The notes under the pieces are model-generated. The model saw only the letters and a program-made list of their open reading frames with translations. It was not told the origin of the DNA and did no database searches. Position numbers and translations under genes: made by a program. Positions 19,062 through 64,000 of a DNA stretch of 64,000 bases are shown here, one piece after another. The DNA comes from a virus (lineage: Duplodnaviria; Heunggongvirae; Uroviricota; Caudoviricetes). The number at the start of each line of letters is the position of its first letter. Position 1 is the stretch's first letter. Location: positions 231,832-295,831 of IMG/VR virus record IMGVR_UViG_3300023179_004209, one strand, 5' to 3'.

Positions 19062-19084
19062 AAAAGTTGTGGTATATTCATAAT

Positions 19085-33921: not shown

Positions 33922-33925
33922 AATT

Positions 33926-34657: not shown

Positions 34658-34668
34658 TAACTGATAAT

Positions 34669-37640: not shown

Positions 37641-37641
37641 T

Positions 37642-38519: not shown

Positions 38520-39019
38520 TGATTAAATTATCTCAATTAATAAATGAATTAAAATTGACAAATGATATGCGTATTCATATGTCAAAGAATCCATTTGAAT
38601 TGGAACAAAGAACATTCAAACAAAACATTGGAATGAAACCATTTGGATTTTGGTATGGTTTTGGTAGTGAATGGATTGACTGGACACGAAGTGAAGTGCC
38701 GGATTGGGTTGGTAAATACATTTATAGTGTTGATATTGGAAATTCCAATGTATTACAGATAAATACCCATATGGAATTGATGCAATTTAACCGTGAATAT
38801 CAATCCAATATAAGTGGTATTGGACATAGAAGACTAGAAGGTGAAGTAATTGACTGGAAAAAAGTTGCTGATAAGTATGATGGTATAGAAATCAATCCAT
38901 ATCAATTTGAAGCTAGATATCAATATTTATGGTATTATGGTTGGGATATTGCAAGTGGGTGTATATGGAATTTAAAGAATGTTAAACTAAAGTTGTTAAC
39001 TGATAAAGGAATAGAATGA
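38519..39019 (+). CDS. protein with N-terminal MIKLSQLINE (propeptide candidate 4)
   Basis: ORF. Confidence 0.6.
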   Translation: MIKLSQLINELKLTNDMRIHMSKNPFELEQRTFKQNIGMKPFGFWYGFGSEWIDWTRSEVPDWVGKYIYSVDIGNSNVLQINTHMELMQFNREYQSNISGIGHRRLEGEVIDWKKVADKYDGIEINPYQFEARYQYLWYYGWDIASGCIWNLKNVKLKLLTDKGIE

Positions 39020-39537
39020 ACTTGATTACAGAAAATAGACACAGTGAATTTGGTTGTTTAATGGCTATAGTTGAACCAACCAGAGGACCACACATCATTA
39101 AATTTGGTAAAACAATAGTACCACCACAAATTCTTTATACTGATCCAAATGATAGTAGCTATGGTTATGATGATGAACCACACATTACAGCTAAGTATGG
39201 TTATTCTCCTGACTTAACAAGAGCTAATTTAGCCACCATTCTACAAGGTATCAAACCATTTATTGTTAAACTTACTGGTTTAACCCAATTTCAAAATGAA
39301 AAGTATGATGTAGTCAAGTTTGATGTAGAAAAGAATGAGATATTATCTGAAATAAGACGAAGATGCGATTGTTATAAGAATGAGGATAAATACCCAGATT
39401 ACAAACCACATATGACATTGGCTTATGTACAAAAAGGTAAGTTTCCTCATATTAAAGAAGGATTAAACATATCTGTACCAGTCACCAGATTCAAATATAG
39501 TGGTCAAGACGGTAAAAAATTATACATCAATTTGTAA
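39016..39537 (+). CDS. 2H phosphoesterase superfamily protein (LigT / cyclic phosphodiesterase-like)
   Basis: two H-x-T-x motifs (EPHITAKY and KPHMTLAY) about 85 aa apart. Confidence 0.6.
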   Translation: MNLITENRHSEFGCLMAIVEPTRGPHIIKFGKTIVPPQILYTDPNDSSYGYDDEPHITAKYGYSPDLTRANLATILQGIKPFIVKLTGLTQFQNEKYDVVKFDVEKNEILSEIRRRCDCYKNEDKYPDYKPHMTLAYVQKGKFPHIKEGLNISVPVTRFKYSGQDGKKLYINL

Positions 39538-40929: not shown

Positions 40930-41571
40930 ATGTTAAAATCATTATTATCACTACTATTAACTACAACAATATTTGCAGCGGAATTTGAATCGGTAAATTA
41001 TTATACAAAGAATTACCTATTTGACGCTCAAATATATTCTGTCAATACTTTCGTATCCGAAAACACACTTAGCCATCAACTAGGTGATTTTACGCCGCAT
41101 CTTGACTATGTACAATACCAAGGTTTGGATAAATATAAAGAAAGTGACTTTGGATTTGGTAGTGAATATAAACTAACAGATAAACTAAATTTGGATGTAG
41201 GTAGTTGGTATTACTATTATTACAGTGCAGGTGACCATTATTTTGAACCATACGCATCATTAACTTATGATTGGATAGTATCACCAACATTATATTTTAG
41301 TATGATAACATACAATAATACACCTAGAGCAACAATAAGCTTTGATTATAACAAAGATTTTAATGAAAAGCTGCATTTGAATGTAAGACCAGTGATTGGT
41401 ACTGCAGACTATGATGTAAGATATGGTTATTATGGTATAGTATTTGGTTTGGATTACAATGTAAATAAGAATTTTACATTGTTTACTGTTACAGAAGTTG
41501 ATAAACCTTTTAGTTCACCTGACGATAGTATCGTATACACTTATTCATTTGGAATCAAATTATCCCTATGA
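40930..41571 (+). CDS. secreted Tyr-rich beta-rich protein (possible outer-membrane protein)
   Basis: signal peptide MLKSLLSLLLTTTIFAA; alternating aromatic pattern. Confidence 0.5.
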   Translation: MLKSLLSLLLTTTIFAAEFESVNYYTKNYLFDAQIYSVNTFVSENTLSHQLGDFTPHLDYVQYQGLDKYKESDFGFGSEYKLTDKLNLDVGSWYYYYYSAGDHYFEPYASLTYDWIVSPTLYFSMITYNNTPRATISFDYNKDFNEKLHLNVRPVIGTADYDVRYGYYGIVFGLDYNVNKNFTLFTVTEVDKPFSSPDDSIVYTYSFGIKLSL

Positions 41572-45530: not shown

Positions 45531-45606
45531 GTCCCTATAGCTCAAACGGATAGAGCATCTGCCTTCTAAGCAGATGATCCAGGTTCGATTCCTGGTGGGG
45601 ATACCA
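45531..45606 (+). tRNA. tRNA-Arg (anticodon TCT)
   Basis: hand-folded cloverleaf. Acceptor GTCCCTA/TGGGGAT with wobbles; D-stem GCTC/GAGC; anticodon arm TCTGC-CTTCTAA-GCAGA; T-arm CCAGG-TTCGATT-CCTGG; A+CCA. Confidence 0.7.
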
Positions 45607-45668
45607 TTTTTTGAACATATTTATAAATTTGTATATATTTATATGTTCAAACTTCTCTAAAAAAGAAG

Positions 45669-45696
45669 TTGATTCTTTGAAAATTTGCGGTAAGAT
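45669..45696 (+). promoter_or_regulatory. promoter TTGATT-N17-TAAGAT followed by the AGTAGTAAGT..GTTCTTT motif
   Basis: one of four promoters in the RNA cluster followed by GTAGTAAGT. Confidence 0.45.
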
Positions 45697-45823
45697 AAAG
45701 AAGTAGTAAGTAATTTGTTCTTTCAGCATGGTGGGAGAAGCACTCCTCTAGAACATCTTCGTATGGCGGAACTGCCTTGACCTTTAATCAAAGGGGGTCA
45801 CCAACGAAAGAAACAAATTACTG

Positions 45824-45852
45824 TTGACAAAAGAATAAATCGTGGTAAGATA
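45824..45852 (+). promoter_or_regulatory. promoter TTGACA-N17-TAAGAT followed by AGTAGTAAGTTCTTTAAAA
   Basis: as above. Confidence 0.5.
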
Positions 45853-45936
45853 AAAAAGTAGTAAGTTCTTTAAAATAAAAATATGAAAGTAAAGGATTAC
45901 TAATCTTTTGCTTATAATGTATAATATATATTCTAT

Positions 45937-46368
45937 ATGGAACATAGTAAACAAAAAGGCAATTTAGGATTTTCTGCAACTCTCAAAGAATTACATAAAC
46001 TTGGATATAATGTATTTACTGAAGTTGGAGATTACTCTAAAATAGATATGATAGTTGAGGTAAAGAATAAATTAATTAAACTTCAAGTTAAATACATTAC
46101 GGATTCAAATGGAAAAGTAACTTTAAACTTACAAAAAAGTGGACCAAATGGGTATAGATACAAGTATACAGAACTTGATATAGATTTGTTCAGTATTTAC
46201 TTACCTACTTTAGATAAAGTAATTTTTGTACCTGCTAAATTAGCTTGTAAGAATACTAAAGCATTTAGCATTAGATTTAATGAAAGTAAAAATCATCAAA
46301 GTAAACATATTAATTATATAAGTGAATTTGAAGATTTAAATAAAACACTAAACAATTTAGTTCTTTAA
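45937..46368 (+). CDS. hypothetical protein embedded in the tRNA cluster
   Basis: ORF; stop codon lies within the GTTCTTTAAAA motif. Confidence 0.5.
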   Translation: MEHSKQKGNLGFSATLKELHKLGYNVFTEVGDYSKIDMIVEVKNKLIKLQVKYITDSNGKVTLNLQKSGPNGYRYKYTELDIDLFSIYLPTLDKVIFVPAKLACKNTKAFSIRFNESKNHQSKHINYISEFEDLNKTLNNLVL

Positions 46369-46375
46369 AATTTAT

Positions 46376-46451
46376 GGGATTGTAGCTCAATTGGCAGAGC
46401 AGTTCGCTTTTAACGAATTGGTTGACGGTTCAAGTCCGTCCGGTCCCACCA
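46376..46451 (+). tRNA. tRNA-Lys (anticodon TTT)
   Basis: GGGATTG..CGGTCCC acceptor; anticodon loop CTTTTAA; T-arm GACGG-TTCAAGT-CCGTC; A+CCA. Confidence 0.7.
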
Positions 46452-46457
46452 TTTAAT

Positions 46458-46532
46458 GGCGTTATCGTCTATCGGCTAGGACACTGGACTTTCACTCCGG
46501 TAAGAGGGGTTCGATTCCCCTTAACGCTACCA
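46458..46532 (+). tRNA. tRNA-Glu (anticodon TTC)
   Basis: GGCGTTA..TAACGCT acceptor; anticodon loop CTTTCAC; T-arm GGGG-TTCGATT-CCCC. Confidence 0.65.
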
Positions 46533-46721
46533 TTTTGTTTGTCCGTTGCTTAAAAGAAACGGAATGGTGGAGGGTAAATAACCAAAACACCCCTAGAGTT
46601 GGAAGTTCTCTTAAAAAACTTCTTGGTTGCGGGGATGAGTCATGGTATACTTTGTTTGTTGGGTGGACAAAGTATTCAATAAACACACCCAACACAATTT
46701 ATATAGTTCTTTAAAATTCAA

Positions 46722-46878
46722 TAGCTGGCGGCAGGTTAGATCTGGGGGTGGCTCATAACCATTCATTAAGTAGGTGCGATTCCTATGCTTCAGCAACCAT
46801 TTGAATGGCTGGGGTTTCAGCAAACGACGAATCCTCATAAGGTTTGTTAAGTGGGGGCAGCACCCATACCAGCTACCA
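46722..46878 (+). ncRNA. tRNA-like / mini tmRNA-like element (acceptor-like stem + T-like arm + CCA; internal GCA AAC GAC GAA TCC TCA TAA)
   Basis: 5' TAGCTGG pairs with 3' CCAGCTA followed by CCA; hairpin GTGGG-GGCAGCA-CCCAT; exact 12-mer of canonical tmRNA tag start at 46820. Confidence 0.3.
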
Positions 46879-46970
46879 TTTACGCCCGGAGAATATCCGA
46901 TCAATACGCAACACGGAAAGAAACCTCCTCTAAAGGGAAACTTGCTAGTAGCGGGCGACGATTTTAGATG

Positions 46971-46998
46971 TTGACAAAACATCAATGTGTGATAAGAT
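46971..46998 (+). promoter_or_regulatory. promoter TTGACA-N16-TAAGAT
   Basis: drives short RNA ending at terminator 47109-47141. Confidence 0.5.
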
Positions 46999-47004
46999 GA
47001 TTTT

Positions 47005-47141
47005 AAGGTTAGTTGAGTCCGTTACCTTAGATTAAAAACTCAACAGTGTTTGATCAGAGCTTCTATAATAAATGATCTCTCGACCAGTAGATAGCTGGTT
47101 ACATTTTCAGTGGTTTTGAAGATAAAACCACTCGGATTTTT
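47005..47141 (+). ncRNA. putative small RNA between promoter and terminator
   Basis: hairpin GTTGAGT..ACTCAAC and terminator hairpin AGTGGTTTT..AAAACCACT + TTTTT; no ORF. Confidence 0.4.
47109..47141 (+). terminator. Rho-independent terminator
   Basis: 9-bp stem + CGGATTTTT. Confidence 0.6.
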
Positions 47142-47166
47142 AGTTAGTTCTTTAACAAAACAATTT

Positions 47167-47252
47167 GCGGGGTGTCAGAAGTCTGGTATCTGGCTACGCT
47201 CATAACGTAGTGCCATTTGGCCTCGGAGGTTCAAATCCTCCCCCCGCTACCA
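47167..47252 (+). tRNA. long-variable-arm tRNA with anticodon CAT (identity uncertain)
   Basis: D-stem CAGA/TCTG; anticodon arm CTACG-CTCATAA-CGTAG; 14-nt variable arm; T-arm GGAGG-TTCAAAT-CCTCC; 6-bp acceptor GCGGGG/CCCCGC; ends ..TACCA. Confidence 0.5.
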
Positions 47253-47258
47253 TTTAGT

Positions 47259-47350
47259 GGCCTCAAGATGTAAGGTGCATGGGGAGACTTATAATCTCTA
47301 TAATCGCTCGATTGGCGTTCTGGGCAGTTCGATTCTGCATGAGGCTACCA
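47259..47350 (+). tRNA. type II tRNA, Leu/Tyr-like body with anticodon loop CTTATAA (apparent anticodon TAT)
   Basis: acceptor GGCCTCA/TGAGGCT; anticodon stem GGAGA/TCTCT; long variable arm; T-loop TTCGATT; A+CCA. Confidence 0.5.
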
Positions 47351-47529
47351 TTTTTGATCGTGTAATGGAATTAGACATACGGATGATGGGTAGCACAAAG
47401 TTACGTTACTTGGAGTGGTTTCCAAGTGTAGTTGAAGCAAATTGTGTCCATCAGACGGGTGCTAGATATAGTCTAACCAACCTTGAAACTAGTTGTGGGT
47501 ATTCCAGTCCCACCACGATCACATTTTAC

Positions 47530-47613
47530 GGGTGTGTGATGTAATGGCAGCCATGCAGCACTCAAAATGCTGTGGAGAAATCCGTGGGGGTTCAAGTCCC
47601 TCCATACCCACCA
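47530..47613 (+). tRNA. tRNA-Leu (anticodon CAA)
   Basis: acceptor GGGTGTG/CATACCC; anticodon arm CAGCA-CTCAAAA-TGCTG; long variable arm; T-loop TTCAAGT; A+CCA. Confidence 0.6.
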
Positions 47614-47660
47614 TTTTTATTGTTCATTGAAAATTAGTAGACGCAAAGTAATTTGTATTT

Positions 47661-48350
47661 ATGTCTTCCAAAATACTACTTATTAGTATGAAAAAGATAG
47701 ATATACAAGAGTTAACAATTGCAACAAAAACATCTATATCATACGCTGAAGTTTTAAAAAAGTTAAGACTGAAGCAAAGTGGTTCAATGCAAAGTCGTAT
47801 TAAGAACGAGATTAAAAATCTTGGACTAGATATTAGTCACTTTACTGGACAAGCGTGGTGTAGAGGTAAAAATTCTTATCAAGACAAAAGAATAAGAAAC
47901 AAATATTCTGATGAAATTATTTTTACTGAAAATAGTAATGTTTCAAACGTTGTAGTAAAAAACAGATTGAAGTCAAATCCAAATTATATACATAAATGTG
48001 AATTATGTTCTATTAAAGAGTGGTATGACCCGTTTGAAAACAAAATCAAACCAGTAAATTTAGAACTTGACCATATAAATGGCAATGAAAGAGATAACAG
48101 AAAAGAAAATTTAAGATTGATTTGTTCTAATTGTCATAGTTTTACTCCTACATATAAAGGGAGAAACATTAATAAAACTTTTAGAAATGGTGAAAAGAAA
48201 ATATCTGATGATGTTTTGATAGAACAATTAAAAACAAAAAACATAAGACAAACTTTAATTTCAGTTGGAATGTCTGCTTCTGGTGAAAATTATGAAAGAT
48301 GTAAAATTTTGAAAAACCAGTTGACAACAAAGAATGATGTGGTAAGATGA
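47661..48350 (+). CDS. HNH homing endonuclease inserted between tRNA genes
   Basis: ELDHINGNERDNRKENLRLICSNCHSF HNH motif. Confidence 0.7.
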   Translation: MSSKILLISMKKIDIQELTIATKTSISYAEVLKKLRLKQSGSMQSRIKNEIKNLGLDISHFTGQAWCRGKNSYQDKRIRNKYSDEIIFTENSNVSNVVVKNRLKSNPNYIHKCELCSIKEWYDPFENKIKPVNLELDHINGNERDNRKENLRLICSNCHSFTPTYKGRNINKTFRNGEKKISDDVLIEQLKTKNIRQTLISVGMSASGENYERCKILKNQLTTKNDVVR

Positions 48351-48351
48351 A
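48323..48351 (+). promoter_or_regulatory. promoter TTGACA-N17-TAAGAT inside the 3' end of the HNH gene, followed by AGTAGTAAGT..GTTCTTTAAAA
   Basis: same architecture as 45824 promoter. Confidence 0.5.
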
Positions 48352-48387
48352 AGAGTAGTAAGTGATGGTTCTTTAAAAACTTTTAGT

Positions 48388-48476
48388 GGGCAAGTGGCGA
48401 AATTGGAGAACCGCAAGGGACTTAAAATCCCTTACATTAGAAACGCTGTGGGTTCGAATCCCACCTTGCCTACCAT
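48388..48476 (+). tRNA. tRNA-Leu (anticodon TAA)
   Basis: acceptor GGGCAAG/CTTGCCT; anticodon arm AGGGA-CTTAAAA-TCCCT; long variable arm; T-arm GTGGG-TTCGAAT-CCCAC; A+CCA. Confidence 0.65.
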
Positions 48477-48499
48477 TTTTTGATAGTTCTTTAACAATT

Positions 48500-48810
48500 T
48501 AAGATAGTGGCGGAACAACAATTAGTTTAGTTGTAACGCACAATATATGGCGTTGAAAAACGTTGTATATTGGTTGGAGTAAGAATCATGGAGGGTAAGT
48601 CTATGGAGAATTTGAGGTCGTTCAACCTCAAATTTGAGCGTATCGGGACCGTAGCTAAAATTTAAATGATAAATCGTAGCCCGTTGTGGGGAAAACAAAA
48701 TCCCATCAGTCATCAACACAAGGAGTAATTACCCGTGTGGACTGTGGATGAATAACCAGTCATGATTAAGAAACTTGGAGGTAATCATTAGTCCTTCCTA
48801 TTTTGATTTA
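48500..48810 (+). ncRNA. uncharacterized structured non-coding segment
   Basis: no ORF; hairpins GAGGTCGTTCAACCTC, CGTTGAAAAACG; preceded by GTTCTTTAACA motif. Confidence 0.25.
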
Positions 48811-48814
48811 ATAT

Positions 48815-48887
48815 GCGGGTCAAGTGTAAAGAGAGCACGTTAGTCTACCAGACTAAAAGGCGAAATGCAAAGTTCGGACCCGCTCCA
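48815..48887 (+). ncRNA. tRNA-like RNA lacking an anticodon loop
   Basis: 7-bp acceptor GCGGGTC/GACCCGC + T + CCA. D-like hairpin GTG/CAC. Middle arm is 6-7-bp stem TTAGTCT/AGACTAA with 3-5-nt loop. T-like hairpin CGAA/TTCG. Confidence 0.35.
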
Positions 48888-48897
48888 TTTTAGTAAT

Positions 48898-48990
48898 GGC
48901 TCTGTGATGTATGGTGCATGGGCAGACTTATAATCTGTATAATCCCTAGATTTGGGTGCTGATAGGGTTCAATTCCCTACGGAGCCACCA
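48898..48990 (+). tRNA. type II tRNA paralog of 47259..47350, anticodon loop CTTATAA (apparent anticodon TAT)
   Basis: acceptor GGCTCTG/CGGAGCC; anticodon stem GCAGA/TCTGT; about 24-nt variable region; T-arm TAGGG-TTCAATT-CCCTA; A+CCA. Confidence 0.5.
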
Positions 48991-49000
48991 TTTTAAATAT

Positions 49001-49112
49001 GGATCAATAGCTCAATTGGTTAGAGCGAAGAACTCTTTCTCTGCTTATAAACTAAAAGTATAAGTAGGAAATAATTCTTGGGTTATCGGTTCAAGTCCGG
49101 TTTGATCCACCA
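49001..49112 (+). tRNA. tRNA gene with about 35-nt insertion in the anticodon loop (possibly CAT anticodon after removal)
   Basis: acceptor GGATCAA/TTGATCC + A + CCA. D-arm GCTC-AATTGGTTA-GAGC. Anticodon stem AAGAA/TTCTT encloses 42 nt beginning CT and ending AA. T-arm ATCGG-TTCAAGT-CCGGT. Confidence 0.5.
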
Positions 49113-49115
49113 TCT

Positions 49116-49655
49116 TTAAAGATTAATTAATCCACCGTGTAATTCTCCATGACAGTTTCTGCATACAAGAATACACTTGTCAAGTTCAGTTTTTAATTTG
49201 TCAAAAGAATATGTTCTTAAATCGGAAATAGAATATTCTTTTTCGTTTGGATTGGTATGATGAAAATCCAATGATCCTATGTATTTATTATAACCACAAA
49301 AAACACATTTACCGCCTTTCATATCAACACATTTTTCCTTTAATTCTTTTTGCTTTTTATAAGCAATTTCATCATTACATTTTTTACACCAACTATGTAT
49401 TTTTCCATTTGAACTTATATAGAAATTATTTTTGTTTAATTCTTTTTGAGATTTACATTTTGGACATATTTTCAATTCAATTCCATTTTCATTTTTAATA
49501 ATTTCTTTTTTTCTAGTTTTATATATTGGTTTTGTTTTTAATCCAAATTTTTTCAACCAATGCCTGACTGTGGTTTGTCCTTTTCCTATACTTTTTGCAA
49601 TTTGATGCGTTGATAGTCCTTGTTCAATCATTAATGTCAAATCAGATTCATTCAT
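49116..49655 (-). CDS. HNH endonuclease with N-terminal HTH
   Basis: CRNCHGELHGG, FHHTNPNEKE, multiple CxxC; HTH QIAKSIGKGQTTVRHWLKKFG. Confidence 0.65.
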   Translation of the reverse strand: MNESDLTLMIEQGLSTHQIAKSIGKGQTTVRHWLKKFGLKTKPIYKTRKKEIIKNENGIELKICPKCKSQKELNKNNFYISSNGKIHSWCKKCNDEIAYKKQKELKEKCVDMKGGKCVFCGYNKYIGSLDFHHTNPNEKEYSISDLRTYSFDKLKTELDKCILVCRNCHGELHGGLINL

Positions 49656-53037: not shown

Positions 53038-53546
53038 ATTATACACCTCCAGATTGGAACGAATGGTTTTTGCAAGGAGTTTATTGGGTTGCAAGTAAAT
53101 CCAAAGATCCCAAAACTAAGATTGGTGCTCTTATTGTAAAAGATAAACGAATCATTTCAACAGGATACAATGGTATTCCTATTGGAGTAGATGATAAAAA
53201 TGAATTACGACATGAAAGACCAGAAAAATACAAATGGTATGAACACGGTGAACGCAATGCGATTTATGCTGCTGCTAAATATGGCATTGATACAAACGGA
53301 TCGATATTATACACCAATGCTTTGCCATGTGCTGATTGTGCTAGGGGTATAATTCAAAGTGGTATCAAATGTGTTTATATACACCAACAATTCAATGATT
53401 TGTGTAATTCAACACAAAGAGAACAATGGAAAGGACATGACAATGCTACTTTCACAATGTTCAATGAATCTGGAATAGAAATTCATACAATTGATAGAAT
53501 TTTGGGATGTAAAGCATATTTTGACGGAAAAGTGTTTGACATTTAA
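53028..53546 (+). CDS. dCMP deaminase (cytidine/deoxycytidylate deaminase family)
   Basis: HGERNA and PCADCA zinc-binding motifs. Confidence 0.75.
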   Translation: MGLNYTPPDWNEWFLQGVYWVASKSKDPKTKIGALIVKDKRIISTGYNGIPIGVDDKNELRHERPEKYKWYEHGERNAIYAAAKYGIDTNGSILYTNALPCADCARGIIQSGIKCVYIHQQFNDLCNSTQREQWKGHDNATFTMFNESGIEIHTIDRILGCKAYFDGKVFDI

Positions 53547-53569
53547 AAAAAGTGTGATAGTCTGTTCAT

Positions 53570-54367: not shown

Positions 54368-54523
54368 ATGGAATTTAGGGGTAAACAGCGTCAATTAAAT
54401 GATAGAACAGTGATTGAAACGTACAATCCTGCAACTAATCAGACATTTTTCTATAGCTTTGATGAAGACTTTTTTTGGTTTCCCGGTCAAATTCCAGACT
54501 ACAAACTTCCAAAAGTGTCTTGA
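54368..54523 (+). CDS. hypothetical small protein
   Basis: internal ATG. Confidence 0.35.
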   Translation: MEFRGKQRQLNDRTVIETYNPATNQTFFYSFDEDFFWFPGQIPDYKLPKVS

Positions 54524-54548
54524 CTTGTTATAAAGTGTGTGGTAATCT
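54520..54548 (+). promoter_or_regulatory. promoter TTGACT-N17-TAATCT
   Basis: CTTGACTTGTTATAAAGTGTGTGGTAA identical core to 15458 promoter. Confidence 0.6.
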
Positions 54549-55303: not shown

Positions 55304-55642
55304 ATGAACGTTAAGGATACATCCATAATTCCCAATGGAGATTATTGTTATACTTGGATTGAAGTTCCAAGTGAAAGTAACAACTATCGTGGTAAGGTAA
55401 AACAATGTCCTTATTATGATTGTAAGAACATCAATGGTGTAGAATTTCCTTGGTGTAATTATTTAGAATTGGGTGGCACTCCCGGTGATAAAAAATGGAA
55501 GGGTTGGGAAGATCATAACAAAGCAGATGAAGTTCTTACAGAACACTTTGGAAGCAAAGAAAAAATGGAAGAAAAACTGCCTTTGTTTCTACTATTTGAT
55601 AGTTGCAAAGAATGTGGCGTAAATGCTGAAGATGAACCTTGA
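55304..55642 (+). CDS. Cys-rich hypothetical protein
   Basis: internal ATG. Confidence 0.45.
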   Translation: MNVKDTSIIPNGDYCYTWIEVPSESNNYRGKVKQCPYYDCKNINGVEFPWCNYLELGGTPGDKKWKGWEDHNKADEVLTEHFGSKEKMEEKLPLFLLFDSCKECGVNAEDEP

Positions 55643-55666
55643 CTTTCTTTAAAGTCATGGTAAATT
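55639..55666 (+). promoter_or_regulatory. promoter TTGACT-N16-TAAATT
   Basis: ATG at 55673. Confidence 0.55.
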
Positions 55667-55672
55667 GATTGT

Positions 55673-56764
55673 ATGAAGATTGACATTCAAAAGGTTGACC
55701 TCACCCAATTTATGGTGCATGAACATTCACTTAATGGTGAAATTGTCCAGTTGATTCAGCCCCAACATATTGGCACTAAATGGCATCAAGACAACAAGCA
55801 TATGCGTAGTGTAATTGTGAATTATGCAGGTGAAGTTATCAGTGCAGGTTTTCCTAAGTTTACCAACTGGGGTGAGAATCCTGATCACTTTCCTGTTCCT
55901 AATTCATTGAAGCATTGCACCGTTGTTGAAAAGCTTGATGGTTCATTGTTGATTGTTAGTAAGTATAATGGTCAATATATTCTACGTACCCGTGGAACTG
56001 TTGATGCTTCTACTATGGCTAATGGTCATGAACTTGAAATTTTCAAGAACACTATTTTATCCAAGTTGGCTGATAACAATGATACTTGGGATTATTCAGT
56101 GCTTTTTGAGTGGTTGTCTCCTATCAACAAGATTGTTTTGAACTACGGTGATGAACCTTCTTGGAGATTGATTGGGTTTATTAACCACATCAACTATTCA
56201 CTTGCACAACAAGATATGTTGGACGCTATGGCTAAGAAGTATGGATTTGATCGTCCTCCTACCTATACTTTTTCTGATGTTCAAGATCTGTTAAAGGATG
56301 TTGACCAATGGAGAGGTAAGGAAGGTGTAGTTGTTTATTCAAAGAATGACCAAATGCTTCACAAGGTAAAGGGTGCTTGGTATCTTGCTCTACATCATAT
56401 GAAGAGCGAGTTGTCAAACATTGAGAAGGTTATAGATGTATGGTTGGAACAGAGTATGCCTGACTATCAGACTTTCTATAGTTATATCTTTACCACCTTT
56501 GATTACGAATTGGCTGAACAGTGCCGTGGTATGATTAGCCGTATTTGTGATGCTAAGAAGGAAGTGGATATGATTGTGGTTGGTATGAATGAATTTGTGA
56601 ATAACAGACTCAAGACTCTACCTACTCGTAAGTTACAGGCTGAACAAGTAATTTCAGCTTATGGTAATACTAATAGAGCTTCATTTTTGTTCAAGTTGCT
56701 TGATGGTAAGTCGTTAGGCAAAGAAGAATATAAGAAGTTACTATTTCAAGTATTGAAAAACTAA
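55673..56764 (+). CDS. ATP-dependent RNA ligase, T4 Rnl1-like
   Basis: motif I EKLDGSLL (KxDGS as in T4 RnlA KEDGSL); later EGVVVYSK and HKVKGAWY. Confidence 0.6.
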   Translation: MKIDIQKVDLTQFMVHEHSLNGEIVQLIQPQHIGTKWHQDNKHMRSVIVNYAGEVISAGFPKFTNWGENPDHFPVPNSLKHCTVVEKLDGSLLIVSKYNGQYILRTRGTVDASTMANGHELEIFKNTILSKLADNNDTWDYSVLFEWLSPINKIVLNYGDEPSWRLIGFINHINYSLAQQDMLDAMAKKYGFDRPPTYTFSDVQDLLKDVDQWRGKEGVVVYSKNDQMLHKVKGAWYLALHHMKSELSNIEKVIDVWLEQSMPDYQTFYSYIFTTFDYELAEQCRGMISRICDAKKEVDMIVVGMNEFVNNRLKTLPTRKLQAEQVISAYGNTNRASFLFKLLDGKSLGKEEYKKLLFQVLKN

Positions 56765-56771
56765 AACAATA

Positions 56772-56805
56772 CCCTACTAATTAAAATAAATTGGTAGGGT
56801 TTTTT
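56772..56805 (+). terminator. Rho-independent terminator
   Basis: CCCTAC..GTAGGG + TTTTTT. Confidence 0.65.
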
Positions 56806-56868
56806 CTTGCATATGTATGTATGATAGTCAATAGTGGCTATCATAACACACAAACACAAAGGAAAAAT

Positions 56869-57084
56869 ATGGCAGATAATAATAAAACTCCCTACGAATT
56901 GCGTTGGGAAATTCTAAAAGAAATGATCGGTATTACCAGAGAAGAGTGGGCTACCAAAAAAGAGTTAGCTCAATACAACGCCGAAAAAAGTGGTAAATCA
57001 CTTGAATATATCGGTGATATTCCATTACACGATGCGTTGCAGCGTGCAGAAAATGTATATACATCGTTTATTTGTAAGAAGTAA
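56869..57084 (+). CDS. hypothetical small protein
   Basis: ATG behind SD-like AAAGGAAAAAT. Confidence 0.45.
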   Translation: MADNNKTPYELRWEILKEMIGITREEWATKKELAQYNAEKSGKSLEYIGDIPLHDALQRAENVYTSFICKK

Positions 57085-57106
57085 TCATTTAAAGAACTAA
57101 CAATGA

Positions 57107-57137
57107 CCCCCACTATTAATTTAGTGGGGGTTTTTTA
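57107..57137 (+). terminator. Rho-independent terminator CCCCCACTA..TAGTGGGGG (copy 1 of 3)
   Basis: near-identical copies at 58312 and 59206. Confidence 0.75.
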
Positions 57138-57161
57138 TTTTTTGTATATATTTATAATGAT

Positions 57162-58283
57162 ATGAGTAAACTACTTAATGAAACATTTCAAAAACATTTA
57201 GGACTTCTTAAAAAGAAACTTAATGAAGCAGGTCAATATGAATTACCTTTAAGTGGTGATACACAGTCAACTAATGATCTTAGTTCTGAAGTCAAGGATG
57301 AGTTTTGGAATAATTTTCAAAAGATGTCAGTTAAAGATTTCGTAGATAAATATGGAAAAAAATTTTCAGATCCTAAATTTCATGCATTTATAAGTGCAGG
57401 ATTGGGTGATAAAATAAATGATGAAGGTTTTGAAGTAACACAAGTTTCGCCATTGGTTACCACATTATCACCTACACAGAGGGAAATTGGATTTGGTAAT
57501 AGTTTAAATGATTTGATAAAAGCAACATACAATGAAAGTGTTCAATTAGAAGAACTTGATAATATGTTAAAAGGCAAAAATGTCAAATTAAAAGCAAAAA
57601 CAGGTGAAGTACCAATAGTAATTTTTAATAATAAATATATAATAGATGGACATCATAGATGGAGTAAAATTTATTGTGCTAACAAAACCGCAACAGTATT
57701 TTGTTTGAATTTTGAATGTCCGGCTTTAAAAAATGATCCTTCAATGGCATTAAAAGCGTTTCATTTAGCAATTGCTAAAATGTTAAAAAATTCTCCAACT
57801 GAAAATAAATCCGGTAAAAATTTATTTGAATCAAATAGAAATGAAGTATATCAATATATTTATGAAATATTAGTTTTACCACATAACAAAGCATTTTTAG
57901 ATGTATACAAAAAACATAGTAATCTTATAAATCCAAACTTAAATGAAGCGGAACAACTAGATTTGATTGATCCAGAAACAACATTAAATTCAAAAACATT
58001 GAAGTATGTAGATCCATTTGCAAAAACAGTTTCATTGTATATTTCTGATAATGCTGCAGCTTTAATAGGTAATAGTAAGCCTGCTACTGATACACCAAGA
58101 AGTCATATGCCTCAAACTGATAAAGCACCAGGATATGAAGATGCATTAGAAAAAGGTGAAATTAATTTCTTACCTGATAAAGTTACTGAAAAAATGGTCA
58201 ATGAAACATTTCAAAGACATTTGACTCTTCTTCACAAGAAGTTGAATTTAAATGAAAATGTAGACATCAATAACATACAATAA
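57162..58283 (+). CDS. protein with N-terminal MSKLLNETFQKHLGLLKKKLNE motif repeated near its own C-terminus
   Basis: ORF; C-terminal KMVNETFQRHLTLLHKKLNLNE. Confidence 0.55.
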   Translation: MSKLLNETFQKHLGLLKKKLNEAGQYELPLSGDTQSTNDLSSEVKDEFWNNFQKMSVKDFVDKYGKKFSDPKFHAFISAGLGDKINDEGFEVTQVSPLVTTLSPTQREIGFGNSLNDLIKATYNESVQLEELDNMLKGKNVKLKAKTGEVPIVIFNNKYIIDGHHRWSKIYCANKTATVFCLNFECPALKNDPSMALKAFHLAIAKMLKNSPTENKSGKNLFESNRNEVYQYIYEILVLPHNKAFLDVYKKHSNLINPNLNEAEQLDLIDPETTLNSKTLKYVDPFAKTVSLYISDNAAALIGNSKPATDTPRSHMPQTDKAPGYEDALEKGEINFLPDKVTEKMVNETFQRHLTLLHKKLNLNENVDINNIQ

Positions 58284-58311
58284 ATTGTAATTTAAAATAT
58301 TAATCAATAAC

Positions 58312-58340
58312 CCCCACTATTAATTTAGTGGGGTTTTTAT
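58312..58340 (+). terminator. Rho-independent terminator (copy 2)
   Basis: CCCCACTA..TAGTGGGG + TTTTT. Confidence 0.75.
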
Positions 58341-58386
58341 TTTTTGTATATATTTATATTTAACACAAAGGAAAAATTTTAAACAT

Positions 58387-59181
58387 ATGAGTGATAAACT
58401 AAACGAAACATTTCAAAAGCATCTTAAATTGCTTCACGAACACTTAAATATAAATGAAGCATATGGTGACCCTGCGCATCTTGATTGGGCTATGAGAGAT
58501 CCAGGTGAAAGACCTGATTGGGATCCTGATGGACTAACAGGAATAAAACAACCATCATCATATAGACCTGCACGAAATTACGATCCCGAAGAAGAAAAAA
58601 GAAATCAATTCAATAAAACTGTAGCAGGTGTTGCTAGAAATATGGGAGTTAACGGTTATGATTTAGTAAGATATTTAAATCAAATTAAACAAGACGGTAA
58701 AAAAGATTGGGAAACAACGGATGAATTAAATCCAGATAAGGATAGACAAATTTACGGACACGATAATTTTGACAAAGCTGCGTTTAAAAGATGGTTAGAG
58801 AGAGATAAAGAAGAATCAGAAAGAAATTATAAAGCCCGACAAGAAAAAGATAAACTAGAAGCACCATCCAGAGAAATTAATTCTGCAGCTGAAGCTATTA
58901 GTTCAGATATGACTCAGTTAATACATAGTATAGGTTTAATTAAATGGCAAGTATTTAAATTAAAAAGTTACGAAGGAAAACTTAAGTATTTAAGTGATCA
59001 TTTTGAAAAAAATGAAGATAAACTAAAAAATGATACATTCAAATACACAAGCGGCTATGAAGATCTTAAACCATACTTTGATAAGTATTCTGAAAACGAT
59101 CAAAAAGCTAAACTTATATTACTCGCAGCAATTAAAAAGAGTGAAAAATCATGGGCTGCTAGAGGATTTTTTGAACAATAA
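58387..59181 (+). CDS. protein with N-terminal MSDKLNETFQKHLKLLHEHLN motif
   Basis: ORF. Confidence 0.55.
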   Translation: MSDKLNETFQKHLKLLHEHLNINEAYGDPAHLDWAMRDPGERPDWDPDGLTGIKQPSSYRPARNYDPEEEKRNQFNKTVAGVARNMGVNGYDLVRYLNQIKQDGKKDWETTDELNPDKDRQIYGHDNFDKAAFKRWLERDKEESERNYKARQEKDKLEAPSREINSAAEAISSDMTQLIHSIGLIKWQVFKLKSYEGKLKYLSDHFEKNEDKLKNDTFKYTSGYEDLKPYFDKYSENDQKAKLILLAAIKKSEKSWAARGFFEQ

Positions 59182-59205
59182 ACTTATAAAATATTGAATC
59201 AATAA

Positions 59206-59232
59206 CCCCGCTATTAATTTAGTGGGGTTTTT
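59206..59232 (+). terminator. Rho-independent terminator (copy 3)
   Basis: CCCCGCTA..TAGTGGGG + TTTTTT. Confidence 0.75.
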
Positions 59233-59258
59233 TATTTTAAGTGGATATTTATATTGAT

Positions 59259-59645
59259 ATGACCAAGACACAATTGAAACAATTGATAAAAGAGTGTTTA
59301 AATGAAATTGATTTTGCACCTGGTTTTAGACCAACACATGATTTAACCATAGTTTCAACTGTTACTGGTAGTGATGTAGATGATTTAAAAACTTATATAT
59401 TAGAATTACATAGAGTTTTAAAAGCTAATTTTGGTAATGATGTACAGTTTGAAGAAAAATTAAAAATGTCTATGTTGTCAAACGGAGATAAAAAAATTGA
59501 AACCACATTCACTATTATTGATATAATTGATGATTTAATGTCAAAAACAGTAAGAGAAAATCTACAATATATACATGAACAATTAACAATGTGGTCAATA
59601 AATCAAGATTTAGTAATAGACTTTACTTTCAAGATTAAAAAATAG
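59259..59645 (+). CDS. protein with propeptide-like N-terminus MTKTQLKQLIKE
   Basis: start adjusted to ATG after TATTTATATTGAT. Confidence 0.5.
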   Translation: MTKTQLKQLIKECLNEIDFAPGFRPTHDLTIVSTVTGSDVDDLKTYILELHRVLKANFGNDVQFEEKLKMSMLSNGDKKIETTFTIIDIIDDLMSKTVRENLQYIHEQLTMWSINQDLVIDFTFKIKK

Positions 59646-59650
59646 ATAAG

Positions 59651-59686
59651 AAAAAACCCCACCGTTAAAAGTGGGGTTATTTGTTT
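59651..59686. terminator. bidirectional Rho-independent terminator
   Basis: AAAAAA-CCCCAC..GTGGGG-TTATTTGTTTG between convergent genes. Confidence 0.65.
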
Positions 59687-59687
59687 G

Positions 59688-60005
59688 TTAGTTCTTCTTT
59701 GGTTTTGTTGGTCTATCACCATCTTTTGATGGACCATCATGTTTTGGACCTCTTGGACCACCTGGTGGTGGACCAAAACTTCTCAAAGTCTTACGATCAT
59801 CATCACTGACCTTGGTGCGTTCTTCCTTGTCCAACTTACCGTCTTTGTTTGCGTCATATTTAGCAATTAATTCAGCACGTTGCTTCTTTTGTTCCTCAGT
59901 CAACTTTGGACGGGGAGGACGGCCTTCACCTGGAGGTGGACCTTTTGGACCTTCTTGAGCATTTAGGGTAAATGCTGCGGCTAATACTAATAGATACTTA
60001 TACAT
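59688..60005 (-). CDS. secreted EF-hand calcium-binding protein
   Basis: signal peptide MYKYLLVLAAAFTLNA; canonical 12-residue loop DANKDGKLDKEE; Pro/Gly-rich flanks. Confidence 0.6.
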   Translation of the reverse strand: MYKYLLVLAAAFTLNAQEGPKGPPPGEGRPPRPKLTEEQKKQRAELIAKYDANKDGKLDKEERTKVSDDDRKTLRSFGPPPGGPRGPKHDGPSKDGDRPTKPKKN

Positions 60006-60140
60006 ATATTTTCCTTTCGTTTAGTAACCACCATAGATTACACTCTATACATAACATATTACATACCCATAACAAACATCTTTTACACCTCCTTTACAAT
60101 TTTCTATTGACTTTATAACAACTTATGTTACAGTAACAAC

Positions 60141-60596
60141 ATGAGTACAATTTATATCGCCGTTGGATTGCCTGGAAGCGGTAAATCCACATACGCAAAG
60201 AACTTTATTAAAGGAAAAGACATTGAATACCTAAGTAGTGATGAATTACGAGCTGTATTTGGTAAAAGTGAAGAAGATCAAACGGTGACTCCACTTGTTT
60301 TTGGTCACATCAAAAGAAAGGTTGACGAATTTCTAAAAGATGGTAAAAATGTATTGGTTGATGCAACCAGTGTAAACCGTAGAGAACGATCTGATTACAT
60401 CAACACCGCAAAGAAATATGGCGCAAAAGTAATTGCTCTTGTTTTCAAGATGGATCGTGCTGGTTTGATTACACGAAATCAAAAGAGAGGTCAAGAAGGT
60501 GGCAGAGTTGTACCTGATTGGGTTATTGATAAGATGTTAACAAAGTATGAAGAACCTTCTACCAGTGAAGGTATTGATGAAATAATTTATGTTTGA
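60141..60596 (+). CDS. P-loop polynucleotide 5'-kinase (Pnkp kinase-domain-like)
   Basis: Walker A GLPGSGKST; size and context with phosphoesterase and RNA ligase. Confidence 0.6.
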   Translation: MSTIYIAVGLPGSGKSTYAKNFIKGKDIEYLSSDELRAVFGKSEEDQTVTPLVFGHIKRKVDEFLKDGKNVLVDATSVNRRERSDYINTAKKYGAKVIALVFKMDRAGLITRNQKRGQEGGRVVPDWVIDKMLTKYEEPSTSEGIDEIIYV

Positions 60597-61233
60597 AAGA
60601 CCACTAAAACTTATTCATAATGATGATCACCGTGTGTATTTCACCAGTGATACTCATTTTAACCATGATAAGGCTTTTATTTATGAAGCCCGTGGTTATA
60701 AAAACCGTTATGAACACAATGATGCTTTGATTGCAAAGATCAATGAAGTGGTGCGTCCAGAAGATACACTGTTTCATCTTGGTGATTTTTGTCTGAATAT
60801 TACTCCGCCTGAATTTGAATCGATTCTTAGTAGAATTAACTGCAATAACATTGCTTATATTTGGGGCAACCATAATAGTTGTATTCGTAGAGTCTATGAA
60901 GATTCGGTAACAACTCAATATGGTAGGGATGTGGAAGTATATCCATATGCAATTGGTAAACTCACTTATCTGGGTTATTACAAGGAAGTGATCGTAAATG
61001 GTCATATGATTGTTATACATCATTTTCCCCACCAAATTTGGAATCAAATGCAAAAGAATGCTTGGCAATTGAGTGGACATAGCCACTACACCAATCCAAC
61101 CACTCAAGTAGAATATCCAGACAATAAAATTCTGGATGTTGGTTGGGATGGTCACGGTAAACCGTTGTCATTTCCAGAGATTCAGAAGATAATGATGAAT
61201 AAAAATCATATCAAGCATGATAAACATCATTAA
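60589..61233 (+). CDS. calcineurin-like metallophosphoesterase (Pnkp phosphatase-domain-like)
   Basis: SDTHFNHD, HLGDF, WGNHN, HH, GHSH motif series. Confidence 0.6.
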   Translation: MFERPLKLIHNDDHRVYFTSDTHFNHDKAFIYEARGYKNRYEHNDALIAKINEVVRPEDTLFHLGDFCLNITPPEFESILSRINCNNIAYIWGNHNSCIRRVYEDSVTTQYGRDVEVYPYAIGKLTYLGYYKEVIVNGHMIVIHHFPHQIWNQMQKNAWQLSGHSHYTNPTTQVEYPDNKILDVGWDGHGKPLSFPEIQKIMMNKNHIKHDKHH

Positions 61234-61241
61234 AAATACAA

Positions 61242-61270
61242 ATCCTCTCCGTAAAAAGAGAGGATTTTTT
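61242..61270 (+). terminator. Rho-independent terminator
   Basis: ATCCTCTC..GAGAGGAT + TTTTTT. Confidence 0.75.
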
Positions 61271-61272
61271 GT

Positions 61273-61300
61273 TGACTTTCTATAAAACCCGTGGTAGATT
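61273..61300 (+). promoter_or_regulatory. promoter TTGACT-N16-TAGATT
   Basis: TTGACTTTCTATAAAACCCGTGGTAGATT; ATG 61310. Confidence 0.6.
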
Positions 61301-63738: not shown

Positions 63739-63766
63739 CCCGTCAGAGAAATCTGTCGGGTTTTTT
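63739..63766 (+). terminator. Rho-independent terminator
   Basis: CCCGTCAGA..TCTGTCGGG + TTTTTT. Confidence 0.7.
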
Positions 63767-63796
63767 GTTGACTTCGTATAAACCGTATGGTAGATT
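63767..63796 (+). promoter_or_regulatory. promoter TTGACT-N17-TAGATT
   Basis: same core as 61273 promoter; SD-like AAGGAG in leader. Confidence 0.6.
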
Positions 63797-63819: not shown

Positions 63820-64000
63820 ATGACTACTGAACGTAAATTGGCTAGTGTTGTTAAGATTGTTGACATTCAACCTATTCCGGGTGCTGATGCTATTGTAGTG
63901 GCTACCGTTAAGGGTTGGAAGGTTGTAGTAAAGGTTAATGAATACAAGGTGGGTGATTTGGCTGTTTATTATGAGATTGACAGCTTTTTGCCTATTCGTC
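63820..64000 (+). CDS. partial gene; N-terminal OB-fold tRNA-binding (Myf/EMAP-II/CsaA-like) domain
   Basis: LASVVKIVDIQPIPGADAIVVATVKGWKVVVKVNEYKVGDLAVYYEIDS pattern; runs off window. Confidence 0.4.
   Translation, partial: MTTERKLASVVKIVDIQPIPGADAIVVATVKGWKVVVKVNEYKVGDLAVYYEIDSFLPIR

Follow-up and report, generated by a model that had tools for sequence, protein, structure and literature searches.

A 64,000-nt stretch of DNA from a virus of the Caudoviricetes (IMG/VR virus record IMGVR_UViG_3300023179_004209, positions 231,832 to 295,831; hereafter the window) was analysed, and it was found to encode two predicted RNA ligases of different families, Rnl1 and Rnl5, together with a pair of predicted end-healing enzymes, all on the plus strand. 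The genes are an Rnl1-family ATP-dependent RNA ligase (55673..56764), a stand-alone polynucleotide 5'-kinase (60141..60596), a stand-alone binuclear metallophosphoesterase (MPP; 60589..61233) and, cut by the right edge of the window, an Rnl5-family nick-sealing RNA ligase (63820..64000). On balance, we favour reading these four enzymes as one heal-and-seal RNA repair module, in which kinase and MPP would restore the ends of broken RNA and the ligases would rejoin them, and the module is real and probably functional.

The Rnl1-family RNA ligase

An earlier note on this DNA had described the first of these genes as an Rnl1-like ligase, and comparison with hidden Markov models of protein families bore this out. 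The open reading frame (ORF) is intact and encodes 363 aa, a predicted end-sealing enzyme that matched PF09511 (E=3.6e-15; 56.9 bits, cutoff 28.3) and phrog_562 (E=3.8e-38, aa 35-353 covered), and in the Protein Data Bank (PDB) only T4 Rnl1 entries matched by sequence (2c5u/5tt6/9do4, E~1e-10). The motif EKLDGS is present at aa 86-91. Within it, motif I (KxDG), K87-L-D89-G90, corresponds to T4 K99-E-D101-G102 and shows no variation among 21 homologues. Motifs III, IV and V (E146; E217-G218; K231/K233) correspond to T4 E159, E227-G228 and K240/K242, the catalytic residues of T4 Rnl1 established by mutational studies. A Foldseek search with the predicted structure returned T4 Rnl1 first and Candida Trl1-LIG as the fourth-best match, with DNA ligases at E>0.2. 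By its profiles and its model, the protein groups with T4 Rnl1 and apart from DNA ligases and capping enzymes, the two groupings that the earlier note had named as contrary evidence.

T4 gp63 has a dual function, as RNA ligase and in tail-fibre attachment, and the label that PHROG and GenBank give to the Rnl1 family is 'RNA ligase and tail fiber protein attachment catalyst'. The gene in the window could accordingly be kept mainly for a non-catalytic role in virion assembly, in which case its nearness to the kinase and MPP genes would be meaningless. We consider this highly improbable, as the nucleotidyl-transferase catalytic residues are all conserved, the gene stands among early-type promoters and not among structural genes, and the linkage of Rnl1 to kinase and MPP recurs in unrelated phages.

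The kinase and the metallophosphoesterase

By its sequence relatives and active site, the 151-aa product of 60141..60596 is a polynucleotide 5'-kinase, predicted to heal 5'-OH ends. It matched AAA_33 (E=4e-26), and its closest solved relatives were the kinase domain of the C. thermocellum Pnkp, CthPnkp (4gp7, E=2e-14), and Pnkp1 (4xrp), followed by PSTK and T4 Pnk (1ly1, 7.6e-9). The family model TIGR04075 matched with its kinase region only (E=1.2e-20; 73 bits against a cutoff of 750). Among cultured phages, the matches were to the kinase domain of T4 PseT and to genes labelled 'polynucleotide kinase' in actinophages and in phages of Bacillus. The P-loop from which the earlier note had recognised a kinase, GLPGSGKST, occupies aa 9-17, and its K15/S16 align with K21/S22 of the CthPnkp kinase domain (CthPnk). 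The acceptor site, D34/R37 in SSDELR, aligns with CthPnk D38/R41 in SSDFCR (T4 D35/R38), while the lid or nucleobase-stacking arginines R112, R116 and R122 and the acceptor threonine T76 align with CthPnk R116, R120, R123 and T80. Residues K21, S22, D38, R41, T80, R116, R120 and R123 are catalytic or essential in CthPnk (PMC3902929). All catalytic residues of CthPnk and T4 Pnk were kept in this alignment, which narrows the P-loop kinase of the earlier note to a polynucleotide kinase.

The neighbouring 214-aa protein (60589..61233) belongs to the aq_1665/COG4186 clade of binuclear MPPs. Its motifs are SDTHFNH (aa 20-26), GDF (65-67), GNHN (93-96) and GHSH (163-166), so that the calcineurin-type phosphoesterase of the earlier note was confirmed with a complete binuclear active site. 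The metal-ligand motifs of the superfamily (DxH, GD, GNH, H, GHxH) are all present, and the ligands D21, H23, D66, N94, H95, H145, H164 and H166 show little or no variation across 52-57 homologues. The structural model was of high confidence, with a predicted local distance difference test score (pLDDT) of 96. Similarity to the aq_1665/COG4186/phrog_547 clade is full-length; the match to phrog_547 reached E=5e-39, and depositors annotate the family as COG4186. A crystal structure has been available for this clade since 2004. The family profile matched 1xm7 at E=2e-11 and λ-phosphatase at only E=0.7.

The protein was also considered as an orthologue of the CthPnkp phosphatase or of λ-phosphatase, and this was rejected, as it resembles 1g5b and 4j6o in the superfamily core only. 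The earlier comparison with the metallophosphoesterase of bacterial Pnkp therefore holds for the superfamily and for metal dependence, but not for any closer kinship. The same note had offered a grouping with Ser/Thr phosphatases as a refuting result; this test was ill-posed, because the CthPnkp phosphatase is itself placed in the MPP superfamily exemplified by λ-phosphatase (PMC2190708).

The kinase gene has its own stop codon after 151 codons, with no fused phosphatase domain, and it overlaps the MPP gene by 8 nt (ATGTTTGA), the MPP start lying over the kinase stop, an arrangement that suggests translational coupling. A frameshifted kinase-MPP fusion was ruled out by three kinds of evidence. 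Close MPP homologues are about 214 aa each (about 120 among the matches listed); the best 150 representatives at 50% clustering, reaching down to about 31% identity, measure 85-299 aa and carry no kinase-length extension; and kinase and MPP are always separate genes in relatives, two of which (L011, L020; loci of related contigs are numbered with the prefix L) have about 1 kb inserted between them. The description of kinase and phosphatase as separate ORFs in the earlier note was thus genuine, and the fusion in relatives that it had proposed as a sign of a frameshift was never seen.

A second RNA ligase at the right edge

Only 60 codons of the gene starting at 63820 (+) lie within the window. 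The earlier note had called it a tRNA-binding-domain gene, and this assignment had to be replaced: the fragment 63820-63999 matched PF21189 (E=1.6e-22) and TIGR02306 (E=6e-16), which correspond to the N-terminal OB domain of Rnl5-family (DraRnl/NgrRnl, DRB0094-type) ligases. The adenylyltransferase domain was seen in the orthologues of relatives, which are 338 aa long and 87% identical over the shared 60 aa. These orthologues matched both PF21189 and PF09414 (E=4e-25), and they align end to end with NgrRnl (5cot, E=2.9e-70). The profile matches, together with this alignment, reject a generic tRNA-binding protein and identify the N-terminus of a second ligase, Rnl5.

Gene order in close relatives and transcription units

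The four proteins were mapped on 21 close relatives, of which 18 span Rnl1, kinase and MPP, while the remaining 3 loci are cut off at one end. The order Rnl1, kinase, MPP is kept in 18/18 spanning relatives, and Rnl5 follows MPP wherever the sequence reaches far enough. The distances vary. Between Rnl1 and kinase they run from about 0.5 kb (L012) to about 4.9 kb, with 3.4 kb in the window, and between MPP and Rnl5 from about 0.09 kb (L011, L022-L024) to about 3.7 kb, with 2.6 kb in the window. The genes filling these gaps differ from genome to genome and include DnaJ, sulfatase, methyltransferase and SPFH genes, and in the window a gene with a ParB-like nuclease domain.

In the window, the gap between Rnl1 and kinase is occupied by inserted cargo that does not belong to the repair module (57088..59678, +). 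Its three genes lie at 57162-58283, which has the ParB-like nuclease domain, at 58387-59181 and at 59259-59645. A repeated unit of about 75 nt, consisting of a terminator and an A/T-rich part, stands before every one of them, and they begin with related leader peptides from a shared leader-coding segment (families D1-D4); relatives have other genes at this position. Because the sizes and contents of the gaps vary and the cargo is bounded by repeated units, the dispersed layout is derived, a compact ancestral cassette having been broken up by cargo bounded by promoters and terminators. The word 'dispersed' in the earlier note is therefore true of this genome only; in relatives the genes are nearly contiguous, and the ancestral state was compact.

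The module itself is predicted to consist of three promoter-to-terminator units: Rnl1, kinase-MPP and Rnl5. A sigma-70-like promoter, TTGACT-N16-TAAATT (55639..55666, +), ends 7 nt before the ATG of Rnl1, and a second promoter motif (60107..60134, +) ends 7 nt before that of the kinase. A third (63768..63796, +) lies upstream of Rnl5, with a leader carrying an AAGGAG/AAGGA ribosome-binding site in between. No Shine-Dalgarno sequence was found upstream of the Rnl1 or kinase starts; with the promoters ending so close to the start codons, leaderless transcripts are predicted for both genes. Directly 3' of Rnl1 stands an intrinsic-terminator-like hairpin with a 12-bp stem and a T-run (56771..56800, +), and a second one directly 3' of MPP (61240..61267, +) closes the bicistronic kinase-MPP unit.

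These elements belong to a wider pattern. In the window as a whole, 19 terminator-like hairpins were found against 4.1 expected, among them those after Rnl1, after each cargo gene and after MPP. The sigma-70-like extended -10 motif TTGAC(T/A)-N16/17-TAnnnT occurs in 37 copies on the plus strand against 2.6 expected (for example 325-353, 1731-1759, 19051-19078, 53536-53563, 54520-54548 and 61272-61300), and 13 of the 37 end 7-12 nt before a start codon that has no Shine-Dalgarno sequence, which implies that many early transcripts of the window would be leaderless. Expression of the module is probably early and from such host-type promoters.

Near-identical units of a terminator hairpin plus a promoter were also seen at gene boundaries, at 57088-57165, 58292-58367 and 59187-59262, and at 61262-61300 and 63758-63796. 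The last of these repeats the unit that follows MPP (family D5). In T4-type phages, 'promoter-early stem-loop' cassettes are thought to drive modular gene shuffling, and the units in the window resemble them. By this analogy, the repeated terminator-promoter units probably explain the variable cargo between the repair genes.

Several further observations were made on the cargo region. Nine ORFs of the window, starting at 23689, 26026, 36792, 37642, 37980, 38519, 57162, 58387 and 59259, and one more at position 264 of L044, have related leaders ending in (L/I)xE; examples are MIKLKDILKE, MTKTQLKQLIKE and MSKLLNE-TFQKHL. The peptide NETFQ(K/R)HL recurs near the C-terminus of the 57162-58283 product. 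The ORFs at 57162, 58387 and 59259 share a common A/T-rich upstream unit that is unlike the TTGACT promoters. The leaders resemble T4 capsid-targeting sequences, which are cut by the prohead protease, and by analogy the leader-bearing proteins may be packaged and ejected. The product of a small minus-strand ORF in front of the kinase gene (59688-60005) is predicted to begin with a signal peptide, after which comes an EF-hand-like segment rich in Pro, Gly and Lys. In relatives, the corresponding position just before the kinase is taken by a minus-strand gene for 112-115 aa (L001 8808-9146, L003 9067-9414).

Linkage in distant contigs and cultured phages

In distant viral contigs, whose MPPs are 28-42% identical to that of the window, kinase and MPP are adjacent and in the same order in three cases (L029, L032, L045). 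Rnl5, kinase and MPP are contiguous in two others (L030/L031), and in a further one (L028) Rnl1 lies near MPP. Two divergent MPP representatives were followed onto contigs of about 1 kb, where L045 alone was informative, with the kinase upstream of MPP. The same families occur together in cultured phages. MPP, Rnl1 and Pnk are contiguous in the Phapecoctavirus Schickermooser; Rnl1 stands beside a Pnk-MPP pair in the Vequintavirus Bas59; in a Pseudomonas Pakpunavirus-like phage, MPP is followed by three small genes and then by Rnl1 and kinase; and the Vibrio Thalassavirus Dax has Rnl1, kinase, a small ORF and MPP. The Pakpunavirus-like Pseudomonas phage group also carries Rnl5, elsewhere in the genome. 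Across the phage collection, counts of the small kinase and of MPP run close together by host genus (Escherichia 198/209, Pseudomonas 173/181, Klebsiella 36/39, Campylobacter 23/23). With gene order conserved in relatives and the cassette recurring in unrelated cultured phages, the genomic evidence supports a functional connection of kinase, MPP and RNA ligase. On the strength of this conserved adjacency to Pnk and RNA ligase genes, we infer an end-healing role for MPP, as an RNA 2',3'-cyclic phosphodiesterase or 3'-phosphatase.

Two other roles for the kinase-MPP pair were weighed against these data. In the first, the pair would heal DNA ends (3'-phosphate/5'-OH) for a phage ATP-dependent DNA ligase, and the RNA ligases would be mere neighbours. 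Mammalian PNKP heals DNA ends and T4 Pnkp can do so in vitro, and polynucleotide kinases of the T4 Pnk family can act on DNA. An ATP-dependent DNA ligase gene lies about 2-3 kb beyond Rnl5 in L003/L004, about 0.75 kb from the kinase in Schickermooser and about 2 kb upstream of MPP in the Pseudomonas phage; a dCMP deaminase and other DNA-metabolism genes are nearby, and Mre11/SbcD and MPE nucleases are among the structural neighbours of MPP. However, the immediate and recurrent neighbours are RNA ligases, not a DNA ligase, in at least 5 independent lineages: the pair abuts Rnl5 in L011, L022-L024 and L030/31, and Rnl1 in L012, Dax and Bas59. The closest characterised kinases (CthPnk, Pnkp1) also belong to RNA repair systems. 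We therefore judge a role in DNA-end healing unlikely.

In the second, MPP would be no end healer at all. It would be a nuclease, or a phosphodiesterase acting on small-molecule signals, either the cyclic nucleotides or oligonucleotides of CBASS, Pycsar or type III CRISPR or ADP-ribose derivatives, and repair, if any, would follow the Trl1 route with the kinase and a distant 2H enzyme as cyclic phosphodiesterase. The MPP family is indeed widespread in phages without an adjacent kinase or ligase, its structural neighbours include the phosphodiesterases YfcE, MJ0936, GpdQ and Rv0805, and the window encodes both a 2H enzyme and a macro domain. Calcineurin-like phosphodiesterases have also been predicted as counter-nucleotide enzymes in jumbo phages (PMC7824862). 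Yet kinase and MPP stay adjacent and in the same order down to about 28-42% MPP identity and across unrelated phage taxa, and the 8-nt overlap in the lineage of the window suggests that the two are translated together. The 2H gene is 16 kb away and not syntenic, and no KptA/Tpt1, which would deal with the 2'-phosphate left by the 2H route, was detected in scans of the window. This alternative, too, appears improbable, and end healing of RNA by the kinase-MPP pair is preferred.

tRNA genes and the 2H phosphoesterase

A tRNA cluster (45531..49112, +) lies upstream of the module and comprises Arg-UCU, Lys-UUU, Glu-UUC, CAU, UAU x2, Leu-CAA and Leu-UAA genes and an interrupted tRNA(CAU). The earlier note had placed tRNA-Lys(UUU) next to the ligase; the gene exists (46376-46451), but it is located 9.2 kb upstream of the ligase, inside the cluster. 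The eight tRNAs found by ARAGORN decode AGA, AAA, GAA, AUA, UUA, UUG and AUG. In the genes of the window, AAA and GAA head the codon usage, 58% of Arg codons are AGA, and TTA and TTG together account for 65% of Leu codons. It is possible that the tRNAs of the cluster serve as repair substrates or replacements.

The 2H phosphoesterase (39016..39537, +), with HITA and HMTL motifs, was confirmed as a real gene by PF13563 (E=3.4e-10) and TIGR02258 (E=3.6e-6). It matched Acb1 weakly (E=0.001) and had no match in the PDB by sequence. The earlier note had counted it as part of the toolkit. A distance of 16 kb separates it from the ligase, which lies downstream; it shows no synteny with the module, and no 2H homologue was found within +/-10 kb of MPP in 30+ loci, which makes its membership doubtful. 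Four leader-bearing ORFs stand in a row directly upstream of the 2H gene (36792-39019, +). Two of them (37642-37983 and 37980-38519) carry YH(L/Y)T...I..(H/E)GL motifs, which recall KptA-like enzymes or those of the ADP-ribosyltransferase fold. Searches for such an identity returned a sub-threshold DUF7002 match only, with no NCBIfam or PHROG match for either and no PDB match for 37980-38519.

The interrupted tRNA(CAU) (49001..49112, +; 112 nt) was missed by ARAGORN and found by an Rfam match. A 35-nt insertion (49036-49070) falls exactly between anticodon nucleotides 34 and 35. Intact 76-nt orthologues occupy the same position in two relatives (L042 8727-8802, L038 15958-16033), with a compensatory acceptor-stem change relative to the window copy. 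In the predicted fold, the insertion is a hairpin of 4+9 bp that stacks on the anticodon stem, to which a 3x3 internal loop joins it; the window has a single copy. No further interrupted copies were found in IMG/VR; an identical interrupted allele is present in one independent JGI metagenome contig (L044 106-217) with another downstream context. No ribozyme was found in the interrupted gene (Rfam, E<=0.1), nor a bulge-helix-bulge on inspection of the fold; a group I intron would need to be longer than this insertion.

These features raise the question of whether the module serves the phage's own RNA processing, for example by rejoining the halves of this tRNA after excision of the 35 nt. The insertion would then be a functional protein-spliced intron, and the phage kinase, MPP and Rnl1 would act as an analogue of Trl1. 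Its exact placement, the intact orthologues and the identical allele in an independent contig are in keeping with this idea; excision would leave a broken anticodon loop, and such a loop is the canonical substrate of Rnl1. We nevertheless consider it very unlikely, because relatives with an uninterrupted tRNA(CAU) keep the module too, and cultured phages also have it. A splicing endonuclease was not identified, the fold and ribozyme searches were negative as described, and a single sequence variant of the insertion is known, which yields no covariation evidence. As the cluster has other tRNA(CAU) genes, the interrupted copy may be a tolerated pseudogene. If true, splicing of this kind would make the phage the first bacterial virus with a Trl1-like enzymatic pathway for splicing tRNA, and the repair module would have a housekeeping substrate.

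Other features of the cluster were noted. Three long tRNAs have class-II-like variable arms (47166-47252, 47259-47350 and 48898-48990, +): one is an 87-nt CAU tRNA, and two, of 92-93 nt, have the anticodon UAU and discriminator A73; the aminoacylation identity of these tRNAs may be Ile or Leu-like. Relatives keep them, except that the second position in L043 is taken by a UAU tRNA of normal length (77 nt). All tRNA genes of the cluster encode the CCA end. Three free-standing homing-endonuclease-like genes lie among the tRNAs (45937-46368, +; 47661-48350, +; 49116-49655, -), one of the PD-(D/E)XK type (PF11645) and two of HNH/zinc-ribbon type. The one at 49116-49655 starts 4 nt past the interrupted tRNA and is absent from L044.

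Setting of the module and other genes in the window

The window has a G+C content of 32.8%. Its short, densely packed genes, mostly on one strand, its intrinsic terminators and its gene starts, which are leaderless or have a Shine-Dalgarno sequence, give it the look of bacteriophage DNA. No nucleotide-level match was found in the cultured-phage collection (megablast, 7 kb of the window). Its proteins have abundant close relatives in metagenomes, on contigs up to 215-231 kb, and this suggests that the source is an uncultured lineage of large or jumbo phages.

Several genes outside the module were recorded. An HD-domain protein with a YhaM-like HD region (6485-7048, +) is followed at once by a DarG-like macro-domain protein (phrog_335; 7054-7512, +), and the pair could process ADP-ribose derivatives or reverse ADP-ribosylation. 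A TnpB/IS605 OrfB-like gene with a Cas12f-like TNB domain lies inside the phage genome (10045-11184, -), and a small stand-alone S4/TyrRS-C-terminal-like RNA-binding protein is encoded at 17461-17757 (+; PF22421, E=3e-12). An ankyrin-repeat protein is fused to an adenylate/guanylate-cyclase domain (24216-25991, +); a second, membrane-anchored cyclase-like protein was recognised by eye only (41568-43007, +); and four paralogous leucine-rich-repeat-like proteins of about 225-255 aa each are encoded in an array (32432-35349, +).

Discussion

The gene set found here resembles several characterised repair systems, and none of them exactly. T4 counters PrrC with Pnkp (PseT) and Rnl1 (gp63), and the window shares with it a 5'-kinase, a predicted 2',3'/3'-phosphatase and an Rnl1-type ligase of the same Pfam family with the same motifs; the N-terminal domain of PseT is homologous to the window kinase (about 33% identity over 117 aa). 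In T4, however, the kinase is fused to an acylphosphatase of the HAD/DxDxT type, whereas the window has a stand-alone 151-aa kinase, a binuclear MPP and an additional Rnl5-type ligase. Bacterial Pnkp (C. thermocellum Pnkp-Hen1; Capnocytophaga Pnkp1-Rnl-Hen1) offers the closest kinase domains, with shared catalytic residues, and a metal-dependent phosphatase of the MPP superfamily. There, kinase, phosphatase and an Rnl4-type ligase form a single polypeptide with Hen1 as partner, while the window has separate genes, Rnl1 and Rnl5, and no Hen1 was seen in it.

Fungal and plant Trl1 combines ligase, kinase and 2H activities, and the window likewise encodes an Rnl1-like ligase, a P-loop kinase and a 2H enzyme. 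Trl1 is fused, whereas in the window the genes are unfused, the 2H gene is unlinked, no Tpt1/KptA was found, and the conserved partner of the kinase is MPP and not 2H. With DraRnl and NgrRnl, the likeness lies in the OB plus nucleotidyltransferase architecture, seen in the orthologue of the right-edge gene. In the lineage of the window and in L030/31, Rnl5 stands beside the kinase-MPP end-healing pair, which suggests a heal-and-seal context for this family, whose part in physiology has been called uncharted (PMC5397189).

The nearest parallels are the cassettes of cultured phages (Bas59, Schickermooser/phAPEC8-like, Pakpunavirus-like, Dax), which have the same three families as separate genes, adjacent or within about 2 kb. 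They differ in that identity is only about 25-35%, the genes of the window are split by cargo, and Rnl5 is syntenic with the cassette in the window lineage. The repair gene set is thus already known: it is annotated in Vequintavirus, Phapecoctavirus, Pakpunavirus-like and Thalassavirus phages, and the concept is published (PMC7824862). In jumbo phages, heal-and-seal RNA repair sets have been predicted, with calcineurin-like phosphatases in a minority (PMC7824862), and phage tRNAs and 2H, KptA and Macro enzymes have been described in the same counter-defence role (PMC7824862; PMC9503650). In the literature searched, we found no biochemical characterisation of the cultured-phage cassettes, and nothing on the generality of the split Pnk-MPP pair or on its linkage to Rnl5.

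Under the favoured reading, repair would proceed as follows. A metal-independent host RNase, either an anticodon nuclease or another defence RNase, would cut tRNA or other RNA. The aq_1665-type MPP would strip the cyclic or 3' phosphate to leave a 3'-OH, and the translationally coupled kinase would phosphorylate the 5'-OH. Sealing would then fall to the ATP-dependent ligases, with Rnl1 closing breaks in single-stranded loops, for example the anticodon loop, and Rnl5 closing nicks within duplex RNA.

A number of observations weigh against this reading or narrow it. The window Rnl1 scored 84.1 bits with NCBIfam TIGR02308, the RnlA equivalog, below the cutoff of 242, and is about 26% identical to the nearest cultured-phage Rnl1 (range about 18-26%), so that by sequence it represents a divergent subfamily and not an RnlA equivalog. 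Its AlphaFold (AF2) model, for which only close homologues were given as input, was poor. Residues 250-362 were helical at a pLDDT of about 78-92, but the overall pLDDT was 62 and the template-modelling (TM) score to T4 Rnl1 only 0.28. The all-helical C-terminal domain is the basis of tRNA specificity in T4 Rnl1, and with the score below the RnlA cutoff and a poor model, tRNA specificity of the window enzyme is unproven. The fold neighbours of MPP are mixed (LpxH, YfcE, MJ0936, nucleases, Mre11/SbcD), and its substrate is not assignable by fold search; nor was any demonstrated activity for the aq_1665/COG4186 clade found in the literature searched. In Staphylococcus Kayvirus, Vibrio D319 and Streptomyces Beuffert, MPP has no adjacent kinase or RNA ligase, and since many cultured phages carry it without such neighbours, it has no obligate link with RNA repair. 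In several lineages, DNA ligase genes too lie no more than a few kb from the module. Finally, because the tRNAs match the codons most used by the phage, codon supply is by this comparison a sufficient explanation of the tRNA set, which shows no specific sign of anticodon-nuclease evasion. The layered defence against anticodon nucleases proposed in the earlier note is therefore plausible, its general form having already been put forward for jumbo phages (PMC7824862), but the tRNA set does not speak for it specifically and the 2H gene is unlinked.

The module fits a known pattern, in which phages counter RNA-cleaving host defences by heal-and-seal enzymes. For MPPs of the aq_1665/COG4186 (phrog_547) clade, the analysis offers a functional prediction, namely that they would be the phosphatase half of a split Pnkp, encoded beside a small kinase in many phage lineages. 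For Rnl5 ligases, it supplies a genomic context, directly beside an end-healing pair in this lineage and in distant contigs. The cassette is present in cultured, genetically tractable phages, including Bas59 and phAPEC8-like phages of E. coli and PAK_P1-like phages of Pseudomonas, and the prediction could be tested there against known tRNA-targeting defences.

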